Source: Candidatus Firestoneibacteriota bacterium
GTDB taxonomy: Bacteria; Oederibacteriota; D2-FULL-39-29; JBDRBU01
Reading direction: 5' to 3'
Assembly: GCA_043822305.1 (NCBI GenBank)
Contig: JBDRBU010000047.1
Span: 1-10,017 of the forward strand
DNA length: 10,017 nt
The notes beneath the pieces were generated by a model, which searched no databases, had not been told where the DNA came from, and was given only the letters and a program-made list of their open reading frames with translations. The translations under genes and the position numbers were made by a program. Below, in pieces: positions 2,004 through 7,786 of the stretch; the first letter of the stretch is position 1; each line of letters starts with the position of its first letter.

Positions 2004-2351
2004 TCACTCATCCCATTTATCATCTTTTTCTTCAACAGTGATTTCTATCCGAGTCGGCATTCCGGCCTCTTTAGAGCGTTTGAGTTTTTCTTCGTGTACT
2101 TTTTTTGAAAAATGTTCGCAATAAAACTTACTATTCAGAAACTCTTGACATTATCTGCATTCTTTTGGAACATTTTTTGGATCATCTGGAATTTCTTCTT
2201 TTTTTGAACACCAATCATAAGGTAAAATTTCAAAACATTTAGGATATCTTCCTTTACCATATTTGATTATTATATTTTGAGCATAAGTCTTTTTTCTCCC
2301 TTCACGCATTCCTCTCGTCTTTTCTATGCCTTTTCTATGACTAGCACACAT
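2004..2351 (-). pseudogene. Small Cys-rich protein gene interrupted by one in-frame TAA (2151-2153)
   Basis: SD GGGGTGA at 2358-2364 precedes the ATG at 2351 (MCASHRKG...). After ...PKECR-TAA the same frame continues 48 codons (CQEFLNSKFYCEHF...KDDKWDE) to TGA at 2004-2006. The stop falls inside a CxxC (CR*C). Confidence 0.55.
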
Positions 2352-2394
2352 AATCATTCACCCCAATCATCGTTATTAATAATAGGTGTTTCTA

Positions 2395-2403
2395 TTTTTA
2401 AAC
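2395..2403. promoter_or_regulatory. Putative bidirectional TATA box between the divergent 2351(-) and 2424(+) genes
   Basis: TTTTTAAAC, with a TTTAAA core at 2397-2402 that is 21 nt upstream of the ATG at 2424. Confidence 0.45.
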
Positions 2404-2423
2404 TGATATTTCTAGTATTATTT

Positions 2424-5054
2424 ATGGCTAAACATAATAAAATGAAGATTACTAATCAAAATATAAAATATAATAAAATATGGTTATCTAAAGATAAATA
2501 TATTTTCCGTTTTGGCTATGGAAATCATTGGTTTATAAAAAAATTTGTAGTTTTATACAAAATATTCTTAGTTGAAAGAAAGAAGATTAATAAAGAAACA
2601 CTTAAGGAGATAACGGATATTTTTAACAAATTCATAGATTCAATTGAAGATAAAAAAATTAAAAAGGATGCTGAAGAATACTTTTTTTCTCCGCTAGATT
2701 TCAGAAAATCAGATAATATAATAGATTTTGATAAATTTAATGATGTTCCCAATCTAGATGATTCTGCAAGAAAATATTACTTTTTATATTTAACTGGAAT
2801 TGGAATGCAATCAGGGATTAAAAAAAGAATTGGGAATCTGCTATATTCTGATAGAAATATAACGATTTCAAAGATAATTAAGAAGATCCCAAAAATCCAA
2901 AAGGAAGAAATTGAAAAAAAGAAAAAGCAAGATAAAGAACCTAGATCTGTAAAAGACAATACCCGAACAATATTCTCAGATTTCCATGCAGAAATTAGAA
3001 ATTTTAGGCAACTTCTTACTTATTTTGGAATATTACCCCCCGAAGAAGACGGTTATGAAATGAATGAAATTGGGAATCTAATCTATTTTGCAGACTCTAT
3101 TTTAATAATGGCGATATGGGAACATCAAAAAATTAAGATGAGATACTATAATCCTTATACGAGTAGGATTAATCCTCTAAATGTTGAGGATAATTATAAA
3201 ACAAAAAAAGATTTCAGTGATTTTTCTGTGAATCCCTATATAGCTCTAATAAATATAATCGAAAAATTAAATTCAATAAATCAAGATCAAGCATATCTCT
3301 CTTTTGAAGATTACAAATTTTTTATTTGTAGAGAGGCTCCATCTGATTTAGATAGAGTTATAAAGAAAATTTTAGATTATAGAAATTTAAAGGAGGATGA
3401 AAAGAATAAAATAAAAGAGATATTCAATAACAGACCAAAAACAAGGAAATTTTCTATAAATAAGACTAAAGCAAGTACAGATGATTTTTTGAAAGAAATT
3501 TCAAATCTCTTATATGGGTTATATGAGTATAAGTATACAAAAGGAAATCCTTATTATCCAAACACAGTAAGATACTCCAAGGGGATATTCAAAGTAAACA
3601 ATATTTCCGATTTCATTAAGCATAGCAAATTCATAAAAGAAATTGAGATATATTTAAAATGTTACGATAAATTCTATAAGATTCTATCTGCCGCATCAAC
3701 TTTAAATCTAATTCATAGTGCCTTTGAGAAATCAACAGAAGAACATAAAAAAATATTATTAAAAATTAAATCAGAATATATTGATGATTTTAGGAAAGAG
3801 GATATTAAACTTAAAAACATCTTTCAAAAGTGGAAACGTTACATATCTTTTATTGATTGGAAATTGTTAGTATTTTGCTATGTTCATATTTTATCTTTAT
3901 ATAAACGAAAGTTATATTTATCAGGACCCTTAATTGATATTACTGGGGTAGATCAAGAAGAGTTAAAATCTCTTTTATTGATGTTTGAGAACTGTATCAA
4001 TAAAGGAGAGTATAATCTTAATGAAAAAATACAATCATCTCGCTTTTTAGACACAGACGAAGAAGAAGATAAAATTGAGAGATGGTTAAAAATAGAATTG
4101 AAGACTTCTAATTATTCAACAATCAAAGAACAAATAAAAAATGAAGAAAACGATATTAAATATAATATCGTAGATGGTCAAAGAGAAAGAAAGAGGAATC
4201 TTAGAATGATGAAATTAGTTCAGTATGAAAGATTTCATAAACATTTAATTATAGATCTGATAAGAAAGGATTATCCTGTCAATAAATGCGATTCTTGTGA
4301 TAAAGAATTTAGTGGGAACGAGCCAGAATGTCATCACATAATTCCTTTTGAAATTTATGGTCCAGATAGCCCCTACAATTATGCTTTCTTATGTAAGAGT
4401 TGTCATAAAATATTTACTCATAAAACATCAAAGAATGAAAGAAATAAATTAATTAAAAACTTAAAATTTAAGGGAATTGTAAATATAGATAATTTCAGGA
4501 AATTGATCAAAGAAGGAGAAATAAGAAAAGAACATTTGGACGTCTTGCTAGATGAGGGTTTCATTCATATTGTATCCTACTTAGATTTATTGAAAATGCT
4601 TAAAACTTCTAAACTTCAATATGATAAATTAGATAGTATTATATCTAAAGTAGGTCCCTCAAGGAATAGGTGGAACCGTGCGATGCAAACAACATTCTGG
4701 TTTAAAGAACCTGCCTCTTGTGAATCCTGTAAGGCTAAATTTAAATCAAACGAGCCAGAATGTCATCATATAATATATAATTCGATTAAAGGGCCTGAAA
4801 GTCCAGATAACTACACTTATCTTTGTAGGCCCTGCCATGATTCTATTACATATAATAGACAAGATAAGGGAGAGATAATCAAAAATTTAGTAAAAAATAA
4901 AATAATCGATAAAGAGTCTATTGAAAATTTAATATTAAACAACGAAATTTTATTTGAGCATTTAGATTTCCTGTTGAAAGAAGGTTTCATATCTGAAGAG
5001 ACTTACAATCGATTAAGAAAAATATTCAAGGATAAAGAGAAATTTAATCAATAA
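2424..5054 (+). CDS. Putative type IIS-like restriction endonuclease: AlwI-like N-terminal recognition region plus two tandem zinc-binding HNH domains
   Basis: Likely start is ATG 2424 (MAKHNK) or 2442. The region 3003-3383 (RQLLTYFG...EIGN...HQKIKMRYYNP...VNPYIALINII...LSFEDYKFF...VIKKILDYR) resembles AlwI-family winged-helix domains. HNH1 is CDSC..ECHHII..N..LCKSCH (4287-4406) and HNH2 is CESC..ECHHII..N..LCRPCH (4719-4838). The gene is adjacent to MTase genes. Confidence 0.75.
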   Translation: MAKHNKMKITNQNIKYNKIWLSKDKYIFRFGYGNHWFIKKFVVLYKIFLVERKKINKETLKEITDIFNKFIDSIEDKKIKKDAEEYFFSPLDFRKSDNIIDFDKFNDVPNLDDSARKYYFLYLTGIGMQSGIKKRIGNLLYSDRNITISKIIKKIPKIQKEEIEKKKKQDKEPRSVKDNTRTIFSDFHAEIRNFRQLLTYFGILPPEEDGYEMNEIGNLIYFADSILIMAIWEHQKIKMRYYNPYTSRINPLNVEDNYKTKKDFSDFSVNPYIALINIIEKLNSINQDQAYLSFEDYKFFICREAPSDLDRVIKKILDYRNLKEDEKNKIKEIFNNRPKTRKFSINKTKASTDDFLKEISNLLYGLYEYKYTKGNPYYPNTVRYSKGIFKVNNISDFIKHSKFIKEIEIYLKCYDKFYKILSAASTLNLIHSAFEKSTEEHKKILLKIKSEYIDDFRKEDIKLKNIFQKWKRYISFIDWKLLVFCYVHILSLYKRKLYLSGPLIDITGVDQEELKSLLLMFENCINKGEYNLNEKIQSSRFLDTDEEEDKIERWLKIELKTSNYSTIKEQIKNEENDIKYNIVDGQRERKRNLRMMKLVQYERFHKHLIIDLIRKDYPVNKCDSCDKEFSGNEPECHHIIPFEIYGPDSPYNYAFLCKSCHKIFTHKTSKNERNKLIKNLKFKGIVNIDNFRKLIKEGEIRKEHLDVLLDEGFIHIVSYLDLLKMLKTSKLQYDKLDSIISKVGPSRNRWNRAMQTTFWFKEPASCESCKAKFKSNEPECHHIIYNSIKGPESPDNYTYLCRPCHDSITYNRQDKGEIIKNLVKNKIIDKESIENLILNNEILFEHLDFLLKEGFISEETYNRLRKIFKDKEKFNQ
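4287..5030 (+). repeat. Intragenic tandem duplication of an HNH plus helical module (offset 432 nt / 144 aa)
   Basis: The exact 20-nt repeat AACGAGCCAGAATGTCATCA occurs at 4317-4336 and 4749-4768. At protein level, IKNL...EI..EHLD.LL.EGFI follows each HNH. Confidence 0.9.
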
Positions 5055-5802
5055 GCTCTACATTTTTTATAGATAAATTATCTTCTTCCAACCTATCTTT
5101 AATCATCGGCAAATATCCTTCTTTATTTAATTCAAAACCTATACATCTTCGTTTAGCTAACTCAGCTGCAATTAATGACGTTCCTGAGCCGAGAAAGGGA
5201 TCCAGAATTATTTCCTCTGGATTTGTGAATATCTCAATCATTCTCTTTATATATGGGACTGGAAATATTGCTGGGTGTACCATAAATTTTTTCCCTACAG
5301 ATCCAAATTTTTTATTAATGTTCCAAATATTTATTTTTGGAATTTTTTTATTGATTTTATAGTCAAAAAAACTAAAATCATTTATTGAATATTTGTCTGA
5401 TTTTGTAAATATTAAAAAATATTCGAAGTGATCTCCTAGATTACTTGGTCTTGGTATCCCACTCGATTTATGCCAATAGTGGACATCTCTAATCCTAAAT
5501 CCTATTTTCTCCATTTGTTTTATGAAATCATAAGGAATTAATACAAGATTTTTTTTATAACTTTTTGTGTTGATGTTTATTATCGCTATTCCATCATCAG
5601 TCAACACTCTAAAAGTTTCTTTCCATACTTTATATACTCTATTAAGATAAGTTTTATAATCTTCTTTATATCCAATTTGATTATCAACTTCATAATTTTT
5701 TAAGTTCCAATAGGGTGGAGACGTAATCATCATTTTTACACAATTATCTGAAATTTCTTCCATACTTTCTGAAGATTTAAAGAAAATTTTATGCATTAAC
5801 AT
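5044..5802 (-). CDS. Beta-class amino-DNA methyltransferase (m4C/m6A, N6_N4_Mtase family), here called M2
   Basis: Catalytic TSPPY near the N-terminus, then HPAIFP and SAM-binding DPFLGSGT near the C-terminus (beta order). SD GGGGTG at 5813-5818 favours a start at ATG 5802 (or 5796) rather than 5844. Confidence 0.92.
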   Translation of the reverse strand: MLMHKIFFKSSESMEEISDNCVKMMITSPPYWNLKNYEVDNQIGYKEDYKTYLNRVYKVWKETFRVLTDDGIAIININTKSYKKNLVLIPYDFIKQMEKIGFRIRDVHYWHKSSGIPRPSNLGDHFEYFLIFTKSDKYSINDFSFFDYKINKKIPKINIWNINKKFGSVGKKFMVHPAIFPVPYIKRMIEIFTNPEEIILDPFLGSGTSLIAAELAKRRCIGFELNKEGYLPMIKDRLEEDNLSIKNVELID

Positions 5803-6382
5803 TATCAATTTCCACCCCTTGAAATATATTATCAAAATTTTCATTTATATTTATCAATAAACATCTATCATTTTCTTCAGTAGTAGATTTAATAATCCTT
5901 TCAATAGATTCTTTAAAAGAAACTGAGATGTGTTTTATGATATTCCCCTTTCCATCATCTTCTGTTTTTAGCCATACATTTCCTGGATCTTTTCCCAGTT
6001 TGTGATAATTTTTTGCTCTTTTACCCCATTCAACATCTTTCCATATATGTCTTTCTCTAATTGGGTCCTTATTAAAATAATAGTGATTATTCTTTGAGAA
6101 GAACAATATTTCAAATATATTGTTACTAAAAAAAACGCCTTCTTTTTTAGTTTTAAAATTAGGAACTAAAATAACATTCCGAAGTTTGTAATTGTTGATG
6201 TTCTCCGCAATAATAAACGAAGAAAAAATAAGGCAATTATTTTTCAAATAATTTTCTGTTATTATCCAAATAGTGCCATCATTAGAAATTTGAAAATTAT
6301 ACTTATCAATTATTGAGTTAATTATTTGTTTTGATTCGTCAACATTTTTACCCAATAAATTAATTATTACAGATCTATACAT
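5789..6382 (-). CDS. Degenerate, probably catalytically inactive, beta-class methyltransferase-fold protein
   Basis: It retains DGTIWII, EILFFSK..YYFNKDPIR, GKDPGNVW and IERIIKSTTEENDRCL, collinear with the neighbouring MTase, but has no (S/D)PPY and no FxGxG. It has its own SD GAGGT (6389-6393) and overlaps both neighbours. Confidence 0.75.
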   Translation of the reverse strand: MYRSVIINLLGKNVDESKQIINSIIDKYNFQISNDGTIWIITENYLKNNCLIFSSFIIAENINNYKLRNVILVPNFKTKKEGVFFSNNIFEILFFSKNNHYYFNKDPIRERHIWKDVEWGKRAKNYHKLGKDPGNVWLKTEDDGKGNIIKHISVSFKESIERIIKSTTEENDRCLLININENFDNIFQGVEIDNVNA

Positions 6383-7425
6383 TCTTTAACCTCTTTATTT
6401 TTTTGTGAAAATCTTTGGCTGATACGATGCTCTGCAATTTCACAGTACTTAATCTCTTTATCTATACCGATCCATTTCCGATTCAATTCGTTCGCTACCT
6501 TACAAACAGTCCCACTTCCATTAAAGATATCAAGAACAACGTCATTTTCATTAGAAGACATTTTAATTATCCTTTTTATCATCTCTTCAGGAAACGGACA
6601 AGGGTGTGCCTCACCAGTTGAAGGGTGTTTAATTTTTTCCTTTTTACTAATATTTACAACTCTGTTAATATACCAAATATTATCAGATAAATTCTTCTTA
6701 ACGATATCTTCCTTTGAATTAATCAACCCATCTAATTTTGCTTCAATCTCTCTTATTGTTTCGTCCATTAATATTTGGTTTACATAGTTTTCTGCCTGTG
6801 TTTTTAATAGTTTTTTATATTGTTCAATCTTATTTTTTACAGAAATTAACTTATCTTTGTTTATTCTCTCATCAAATACCCAGAAATCTTCAGGATTCTT
6901 CCCCTTGTTATTGCATCTTTTATCGGTTATCCACTTAGCTGGAATTCGAACATGATCTAAATTAAATATATAATCTTGTTTATTTTTTATAAACCAAAGT
7001 ACGTTTTCGTATCTTCCAAATAGTCTAGTTCGTGGTGTTTCTCCCCCTTCGAATTTCCAGATTATCCAATTTTTCAAATGAAAATCTAAATCTTTAAAAA
7101 TATTATAAAAAAAGACGCCCAACGGAAATGTCTCTTTATCAATGATTGTTTGTGCAACATTCCAAAAAATAGCACCATTATCCTTTATAACTCTTTTACA
7201 TTCAATAATTATTTTTTTATGTTCTGTGATATAATCTTCAAATAAGTAATCCTTTTCATAAGATTTTCCTAAGAAATAGGATGGACTAGTTATTATTAAT
7301 GATACAGATTTATCAGGGAGCTTTTTAAGGGTGTCTAATGTTTCACCGCATATTATTTTATTATGTATATTATCAATTTCTTTAATTTTATTAAGATTCT
7401 TTTCGAAAATTATCATTTTTCTCAC
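6367..7425 (-). CDS. Beta-class amino-DNA methyltransferase (m4C/m6A) with TSPSY motif and helical insertion, here called M1
   Basis: Motifs TSPSY, KNWIIW, RYENVLWF, FNLDHVRIP, HPCPFP and DIFNGSGT. SD GGGGTGA at 7431-7437 favours GTG 7425 (or ATG 7416) as start. Confidence 0.9.
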   Translation of the reverse strand: MRKMIIFEKNLNKIKEIDNIHNKIICGETLDTLKKLPDKSVSLIITSPSYFLGKSYEKDYLFEDYITEHKKIIIECKRVIKDNGAIFWNVAQTIIDKETFPLGVFFYNIFKDLDFHLKNWIIWKFEGGETPRTRLFGRYENVLWFIKNKQDYIFNLDHVRIPAKWITDKRCNNKGKNPEDFWVFDERINKDKLISVKNKIEQYKKLLKTQAENYVNQILMDETIREIEAKLDGLINSKEDIVKKNLSDNIWYINRVVNISKKEKIKHPSTGEAHPCPFPEEMIKRIIKMSSNENDVVLDIFNGSGTVCKVANELNRKWIGIDKEIKYCEIAEHRISQRFSQKNKEVKECIDL

Positions 7426-7457
7426 TTTATTCACCCCTTATCTATTCTTTCCAATCT

Positions 7458-7580
7458 TTAAATTCTCTTTAATCCCTTTCTCGGCCACAAAAACCATACG
7501 TAAAATGCTCCTCCCACACCAATCGATAACAAGAGGCAAATTATCTGATTTTCAACTCCGAATATACAATACATGGCCAT
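7458..7580 (-). CDS. Possible 40-aa single-pass membrane peptide (not in the ORF track)
   Basis: MAMYCIFGVENQIICLLLSIGVGGAFYVWFLWPRKGLKRI*: one hydrophobic stretch followed by a basic tail. AGGT lies upstream, and the ORF is co-oriented directly before M1. Confidence 0.45.
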   Translation of the reverse strand: MAMYCIFGVENQIICLLLSIGVGGAFYVWFLWPRKGLKRI

Positions 7581-7585
7581 CAACT

Positions 7586-7650
7586 TACCTATTAGTAATA
7601 TACTATTGGTAAAGAAACTATAAATACTTATTGGTATATTACTATTAGTA
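7586..7650. promoter_or_regulatory. Divergent promoter with four TATTRGTA operator-like boxes flanking a TATA box
   Basis: TATTAGTA at 7590, TATTGGTA at 7604, TATTGGTA at 7629 and TATTAGTA at 7643 (spacing 14/25/14). There is a perfect 11-bp inverted repeat, TAGTAATATAC 7593-7603 / GTATATTACTA 7634-7644. TATAAATA at 7619-7626 is preceded by purine-rich AAAGAAAC (BRE-like). Confidence 0.7.
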
Positions 7651-7651
7651 T

Positions 7652-7786
7652 ATGGGTAAAATTACACTTTCTGGCTTCAAATGTGAACGCTGCGGGCATA
7701 AATGGGTGCCGAGAAACAGGAAGGAAGATCCTAGAGTTTGTCCTAAATGTAAGAGTCCATATTGGGATAGAAAAAGGAAGAAGTGA
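7652..7786 (+). CDS. 44-aa basic zinc-ribbon protein (CxxC...CxxC), putative DNA-binding regulator (not in the ORF track)
   Basis: MGKITLSGFKCERCGHKWVPRNRKEDPRVCPKCKSPYWDRKRKK*. The CxRCGHxWxPR..PxxCPKCKSPYW pattern is that of small archaeal zinc-finger proteins. The ATG lies just downstream of the TATA box. Confidence 0.88.
   Translation: MGKITLSGFKCERCGHKWVPRNRKEDPRVCPKCKSPYWDRKRKK

Follow-up and report, generated by a model that had tools for sequence, protein, structure and literature searches.

A gene for a 44-residue basic four-cysteine zinc-ribbon microprotein and a 27-bp palindrome lying upstream of it occur together, with a characteristic geometry and set of neighboring genes, at many loci in archaea and bacteria. 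We propose that the two form a portable repressor-operator cassette in which a dimer or larger assembly of the protein likely sits on the palindrome and represses both the divergent promoter and its own. We put the probability of this reading at about 0.7. Gene-site co-occurrence, site geometry and gene neighborhoods are direct observations, and we infer that the protein binds zinc and DNA, as well as its oligomeric state, the sign of regulation and the timing model set out below.

The window (the whole stretch of DNA analyzed, 10,017 nucleotides) carries the gene of this proposed operator-binding repressor as an ORF with CxxC and CPxC motifs at 7652..7786 on the plus strand. Facing it on the minus strand is what the original prediction described as a divergent methyltransferase (MTase) operon. 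MTases are indeed part of the operon, but its first gene is a 41-codon hydrophobic ORF (7458..7583) that matches no family and occupies the slot held in relatives by a transposase. This ORF is followed by N6/N4 DNA methyltransferase 1 (6367..7434; PF01555, E 5e-52; PADLOC MTase_II), a short, degenerate N6/N4 MTase-like ORF (5789..6382; PF01555, E 1e-8) and N6/N4 DNA methyltransferase 2 (5044..5844; PF01555, E 8e-43; PADLOC MTase_II). Homologues of the hydrophobic ORF occur on contigs C124, C99 and C40 (the last with a stop) and at locus L359, with defense genes nearby in the neighborhoods seen. Convergent with the MTases, on the plus strand, is a gene for a large double-HNH protein (2277..5054; PF01844 over two stretches), a putative nuclease whose position suggests that it is the partner of the MTases. 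The zinc-ribbon gene does not precede the HNH gene, which is 2.6 kb away with the MTases between them, and none of the eight best operator-like sites in the window lies near the HNH gene start. UDG-like, DUF5655 (PADLOC PDC-S18) and NUDIX genes lie further leftward, and a Pfam profile search found no transposase in the window.

The region between the microprotein gene and its divergent neighbor had been described as containing two pairs of TATTRGTA boxes, and these are present on the plus strand at 7590, 7604, 7629 and 7643 (spacings of 14, 25 and 14). A search of that strand of the whole window returns only these four boxes, and three or more boxes appear in 0 of 200,000 mononucleotide shuffles of 7561-7660. 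One pair flanks each side of TATAAATA (7619-7626), as stated, and the last box ends at 7650, just before the ATG at 7652. The claim that every box lies in a near-palindrome holds for boxes 2 (8/11) and 4 (10/11) and not for boxes 1 (6/11) and 3 (2/11) in the 11-nt frame used, into which the latter two fit poorly because they belong to 12-nt TACY-N4-RGTA units. The suggestion that the pairs form an inverted repeat has to be replaced, since a direct repeat fits better (20/27 at an offset of 39, vs 17/26 inverted). Within each pair a gap of 3 bp divides a 12-bp unit from one of 11 bp, an arrangement that is present twice in the window. The boxes had been framed half a period off, and the real unit is a 27-bp palindrome (consensus TACCTnnTAGTAwwwTACTAnnAGGTA), two copies of which, 39 bp apart, surround the TATA box.

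Scored with a matrix trained without the window, candidate operator A (7586..7612; core 7594-7604; boxes 1 and 2) is the best site in the window at 21.4 bits and lies over the predicted start of the leftward transcript. Candidate operator B (7625..7651; core 7633-7643; boxes 3 and 4) is second best at 19.6 bits and lies over the predicted leaderless start of the zinc-ribbon gene. The third-best score is 10.1 bits; weak matches at 5815-5841 (10.0 bits) and 1189-1215 (9.2 bits), near the starts of the MTase 2 and DUF5655 genes, are within chance. The TATA-like box between the operators (7619..7626, plus strand) lies 33 nt before the ATG and reads TTTATA on the minus strand, and from this sequence we predict a promoter element that is possibly bidirectional. 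With one TATA box in the window and a site on each side of it, the protein could block both starts. The positions of the two operators over predicted start regions agree with the earlier view that the boxes cover the expected starts of both divergent transcripts.

The palindrome is not peculiar to the window. We kept 68 of 80 genome loci (the best 80 of at least 484) and 64 of 80 viral loci, dropping those with less than 150 nt upstream, those missed by the motif expression and near-duplicates. With the window excluded, EM started from random seeds on the 68 genome upstream regions yielded the motif TATATACCTwwTAGTAATATACYA, which when symmetrized gives the 27-bp palindrome. The expectation that a similar motif would be found upstream of homologues is thus borne out de novo. 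In ten-fold cross-validation at a threshold of at least 12 bits the site was found at 46/68 genome loci, compared with 13/3400 dinucleotide shuffles and 0/187 other promoters of the same loci; for held-out viral loci at the same threshold the figures were 9/64, 8/3200 for shuffles and 1/173 for controls. The two top-scoring motif sites of the window are the two box pairs seen originally. The family consensus has a 12+3+12 layout, with paired palindromic units ~15 bp apart upstream of the gene. Its core, RGTA-N3-TACY, is rigid, with 41 exact N3 cases across the 68 upstream regions and no other spacer occurring more than 5 times, whilst the TACY..RGTA unit singled out originally has a variable spacer (N3 in 18 cases, N4 in 28 and N5 in 24). 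Since the core keeps a fixed 3-nt spacer and the outer spacer ranges from 3 to 5, the core lying between the original boxes is likely the primary site. By in-sample scores the site is present at 28/35 transposase loci, 10/13 MTase-only loci and 12/20 loci with neither.

Some homologues depart from this pattern. A paralogue on contig C69 without the site scores 5.6 bits. A divergent homologue (L008, on G054:C47) has a different 20-bp near-palindrome, present twice around its -35, which is a candidate for co-varied specificity. Members of a short-loop viral clade (L116, L126, L131, L147, L153, L155, L161 and L166) have one TTACCnATAGG-type unit in the -35/-10 spacer, and in three short-loop viral loci tested an HNH, NUMOD3 or similar gene lies directly 3' (L116 and L126 are named, and also L169 and L170).

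The reverse search, from DNA pattern to gene, points the same way. A loose viral pattern was rejected, as the gene was present at 1/120 loci and most matches were GTATAATAC-type sequences without the gene, and the pattern was tightened for this reason. The tight pattern comprises 20 nt built from family sites and was applied to DNA only, to rows that were not dereplicated. In metagenomes the gene was present in the fetched DNA at 84/119 loci among the matches listed and absent at 35/119, and in viral sequences it was present at 1/6 loci and absent at 5/6; the loci are related and the matches are only those listed, so these counts are not independent trials. In 56 of 80 long tight-pattern loci among the matches listed the gene is present, in every case pointing away from the site and in 55 cases within 16-118 nt of it. 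All five sites of at least 20 bits in the 2.15-Mb assembly containing the window are at a zinc-ribbon gene, the next site scoring 17.7 bits. Forward and reverse tests together support the view that the microprotein and the boxes belong together.

The original prediction had cast the module as archaeal and specific to restriction-modification (RM) systems, and neither restriction stands. Many bacterial phyla carry the module, and its commonest divergent partner is a DDE transposase (35/68 genome loci) rather than an MTase (2/68). An MTase is found within 3 kb at 16/68 loci (13 downstream and co-directional including fusions, 2 divergent and 1 convergent), with a background of 23/292 6-kb windows of the assembly, and 20/68 loci have neither transposase nor MTase. 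The transposases are nearest to the IS5, IS6, ISH3, IS1595 and IS1182 models, several of them below curated cut-offs, and besides transposases no neighbor family (of at least 60 aa) occurs in more than 11 loci. At 57 tight-pattern loci with the gene, among the matches listed, the opposite gene is IS6-like in 18, SWIM-DDE in 13, ERF in 5, assigned to no family in 18 and absent in 3. Terminal inverted repeats with 19/20 matches were found in 1/22 loci, most having none at 16/20 within the limited search window.

The downstream cargo of the zinc-ribbon gene is defense-rich. There is downstream room at 120 of 150 non-redundant loci, and at 52 of these there is a coupled co-directional ORF, some of which may be spurious; 30/52 of these ORFs match PADLOC (18 of RM type, mostly MTases or fused enzymes), compared with 6/60 control ORFs more than 3 kb away (1 of RM type). 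Between the transposase end and the 3' end of the zinc-ribbon gene related loci have DNA in common, and beyond this stretch they diverge. Seven loci (L066, L072, L074, L292, L295, L306 and L317) carry near-identical transposase-operator-gene cassettes, and the gene that comes next differs from locus to locus and is at several a defense gene; at the junctions of such loci stop and start often overlap and no terminal repeat was seen. Related genes lie directly before a tyrosine integrase in 4/5 prophage-like loci tested (L109, L119, L123, L134 and L142), a placement that is that of a prophage immunity repressor. One integrase-linked homologue is opposite a weak HTH_17 gene.

Promoter geometry across the family suggests how the protein might act. 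In the 38 bacterial loci, 10/53 sites have on the divergent strand a -35-like word that begins 26 nt upstream of their centre, which places the core on the divergent -10, and the core itself holds the -10-like words TATACT and TATATT. Promoter constraint may account for some of the conservation of the core, which overlaps -10 or TATA-type sequence. In 14 matches the gene's own -35 is placed at -35 or -36 relative to the ATG, and upstream of archaeal homologues TATA-like words cluster at -28 to -33; from these positions we predict a leaderless transcript in both domains. We suggest that a dimer would bind the core, with extra subunits taking the outer half-sites. In a naive cell that the cassette has just entered, both promoters would be active, and as the microprotein accumulated it would cover both start sites and damp the divergent promoter and its own. 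The MTase operon of the window would then give an early pulse followed by a low steady level, and transposase loci would give a burst of transposase in a new host. Counting against the cassette reading are the lack of the site at most viral homologues and at the C69 paralogue, the tight-pattern matches that have no such gene in the fetched DNA, a structure model that is generic and matches no DNA-binding protein significantly by fold, and the rarity of a divergent MTase of the kind seen in the window.

An early-high, later-low MTase profile is what RM systems need (PMC6237814). The C.Kpn2I account in the same source describes a small regulator that is divergent from the MTase gene with overlapping promoters, represses the MTase promoter, binds inside its own ORF and leaves the nuclease gene independent. 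The window is similar in that the regulator is divergent from the MTases and there is no site at the HNH gene, but both of its sites are intergenic, ending before the ATG, and its protein is a C4 zinc ribbon. C proteins of the PvuII/AhdI/Esp1396I type are described as binding paired short palindromes upstream of their own gene, ~15 bp apart and with a well-conserved centre, and as often heading the RM operon (PMC2647307). Window and family share with these the paired palindromic boxes upstream of the regulator gene. However, the C box is GACT-N3-AGTC, whereas the family has TACY-N3-5-RGTA with the rigid RGTA-N3-TACY core; C proteins use a helix-turn-helix (PMC3874152), whereas the microprotein has a zinc-ribbon fold without one; and the main partner is a transposase and the gene is not ahead of the nuclease gene. 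Membership of the C-protein family was rejected on fold, consensus and gene order. The original idea of a dedicated archaeal substitute for a C protein is too narrow, given the many bacterial phyla, the transposase partners and the lack of a helix-turn-helix, whilst C-like control of the MTase operon at the window locus is plausible. Autorepressing MTases such as M.Ecl18kI are described as having an N-terminal helix-turn-helix DNA-binding domain and an operator over their own promoter (PMC3874152). Fusions of the ribbon domain to the N-terminus of C5 and N6/N4 MTases (L021 and L043) mirror this layout, with the differences that the M.Ecl18kI domain is a helix-turn-helix and the window regulator stands alone.

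The protein might instead bind the operator as a true C-protein-like switch, activating one promoter at low level from a site abutting its own -35 and repressing at high level. On the gene's own strand a -35-like word does lie 5 nt downstream of the site centre at 9/53 bacterial sites, the second site there abutting the gene's own -35; the units repeat every 14-15 bp, against 15 bp for PvuII-type C boxes (PMC2647307); and the RM-type share of coupled downstream genes (18/52) would also suit such a switch. We nevertheless regard it as unlikely, since the position of both window sites over predicted start regions suits blocking, the strongest family site is on the divergent -10, and the HNH gene is without an upstream site.

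We consider it improbable that some other factor (a host helix-turn-helix regulator, a C protein acting in trans or the transposase) binds the site with the microprotein as mere cargo. The TACT..AGTA halves resemble the C-box halves GACT..AGTC (PMC2647307), and the geneless 35/119 tight matches among those listed would agree with another binder. The site nevertheless tracks the gene across two domains and unrelated transposases and persists where there is no transposase, no neighbor family of at least 60 aa other than transposases is common to the loci, and just 1 of 29 geneless tight matches, in 86 loci examined, is beside a family transposase. There is a comparably slim chance that no dedicated repressor exists and that the palindrome is conserved as a compact promoter firing in both directions or as a res- or dif-like site of recombination. 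This would accommodate the -10-like words in the core, the geneless viral sequences that dominate the loose-pattern matches and the swapping between loci of the genes on either side, but symmetric outer arms and two copies per locus go beyond the needs of a promoter, archaeal loci have TATA boxes apart from the site, and homology between the window contig (C47) and C124 is unbroken through both sites. Action of the microprotein on RNA or a partner protein (for example in translational control, as with Mu Com, or as a transposase cofactor), the site having a separate role, is very improbable. The protein's sequence weakly resembles RNA-binding ribosomal proteins of the zinc-ribbon type (E about 0.1), but most of the main site would be part of neither mRNA, as it is 55-100 nt upstream of the leaderless start and falls on the divergent -10.

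The repressor proposed here is basic (15 K/R vs 4 D/E) and belongs to a large family. We found 177 near-length homologues, at least 484 confirmed members among at least 594 genomic stretches listed as pattern matches, 273 confirmed among 381 pattern matches on viral contigs, and 1117 longer forms among 7995 scored candidates. Residues C11, R13, C14, H16, W18, C30, P31, K32, C33, K34, S35, Y37 and W38 are invariant in 68 homologue sequences. The best 80 of the at least 484 genome loci come from Nanoarchaeota-type archaea, Thermoplasmatota, Nitrososphaerales and many bacterial phyla. Among other close-relative genomes 5/60 have the gene, three of the five as weak matches in long frames, and the window's own protein is absent from a collection of 15 billion sequences. 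Sequencing runs contained only small shares of the sequence; an RNA-library contig of a related variant spans 7604-7767, a match that cannot show transcription. No Pfam or NCBIfam family scores above its cut-off for the protein and neither PHROGs nor PADLOC has a model for it; FmdB-type zinc ribbons match below curated cut-offs (PF09723 at 24.2 of 34.4 bits, TIGR02605 at 22.4 of 31.3 bits). No helix-turn-helix family appears among 24 weak Pfam matches, and the structure model (pLDDT 82, pTM 0.49) is a generic zinc ribbon without helices. Fold searches of this 44-residue model against solved structures, which have little power at that size, gave no significant match, the best being E 0.65 (Foldseek) and Z 2.7 with an rmsd of 4.6 over 42 residues (VIA-align), and identification by fold was abandoned as only generic zinc ribbons were returned.

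The ribbon domain is also fused to DUF488 and KilA-N-like partners. Joined to an unnamed 70-residue domain, it heads DUF488 operons matching PADLOC PDC-M19A/B (L048, L049, L055, L057, L065, L068, L070 and L080); PDC-M19A was rejected as the identity of the ribbon, as the match in the fusions spans the DUF488 part only. Two to five tandem ribbon copies occur in natural proteins P0141-P0149, P0163 and P0191. A residue-to-site comparison found V before CPxC in 58/59 sequences with the site and 20/52 without, but this separates clades, is confounded by kinship and was not counted as evidence.

A regulator divergent from a transposase or early gene, with operators between them, is a familiar arrangement from Tn3 (tnpA/res/tnpR) and phage P2 (C/cox). 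Unlike the microprotein, whose 44 residues leave no room for a catalytic domain, TnpR is a recombinase; P2 C has a different fold from a zinc ribbon. The nearest solved sequence to the microprotein is PF0610 of Pyrococcus furiosus (PDB 2GMG; E 0.0019), in which the similarity falls on the C-terminal zinc ribbon (chain residues 66-101). PF0610 is a 105-aa winged helix-turn-helix protein by the title of a work cited in PMC7221443, and combines in one chain two elements of which the window microprotein has only the ribbon. The JGI label 'predicted Zn-ribbon and HTH transcriptional regulator' probably stems from PF0610. Haloarchaeal one-domain C(P)xCG zinc-finger microproteins, including Brz, are likewise small and four-cysteine, one of them regulating an adjacent gene (PMC6562870), a likeness to the window protein that is one of description; the portion of that report considered describes no operator. 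The portions considered of two IS6 reviews mention no divergent regulator gene (PMC7986276, PMC6807381), and supplementary IS tables may list such elements. In insertion sequences with passenger genes, terminal inverted repeats bound the transposase together with its passenger; the window is without a transposase.

If the cassette reading is right, an operator can be assigned to a widespread and usually unannotated microprotein family, MTase and transposase expression would be timed after horizontal transfer by a regulator without a helix-turn-helix, and the transposases of uncultured archaea and bacteria would gain a named regulator. A repressor that works at either type of promoter would also be a possible small genetic part. 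A 44-residue peptide and a 27-bp duplex suffice for a cheap test of the claim. We give somewhat better than even odds to a broader proposal, namely that a stand-alone 44-residue C4 ribbon could serve as a sequence-specific transcription factor on both sigma-70 and TBP/TFB promoters, forming a ~250-bp plug-in timer captured separately by unrelated insertion sequences, prophages and RM loci, and that mobile defense genes could thereby move between the two domains without losing their regulation. Cis-encoded autoregulators of mobile elements are known as a kind; a zinc-ribbon fold in this role may be new, and we know of no example. The ISA1214 group consists of archaeal two-ORF elements with a small second gene, and prior notice of the family there is possible. 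The part of PMC5473848 considered only names the ISA1214 family. A search of openly accessible papers found no description of the family or of its operator.

The 2.15-Mb assembly contains five matches to the 44-aa protein, one of them partial. The 14/39/53 box pattern recurs in it only on contig C124, before a second gene copy, where operator A is identical, the zinc-ribbon gene is 92% identical and the NUDIX end is 97% identical. Homology of C124 to the window covers 18-254 and 7571-7767, and the genes between these shared ends differ, C124 having a pair of MTase-like ORFs along with a large helicase-like one (labels drawn partly from sequence). The two look like versions of one hypervariable defense locus. 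The assembly has a bacterial 16S gene, but the window contig and C124 stand apart in tetranucleotide space, and Shine-Dalgarno words precede 2/35 starts on window-type contigs vs 105/349 on core contigs. Both contigs are probably archaeal DNA misbinned in a bacterial genome. High-PC2 contigs (C47, C124, C43, C69, C99, C40, C80 and others) are likely foreign, and several more look like further contaminants. Positions 2007-2357 of the window hold the remnant of a small cysteine-containing gene and a repeated stretch common to C69, C40, C99 and C124, and this repeat partly coincides with the end of a further small CPxC gene, itself found repeatedly in these islands.
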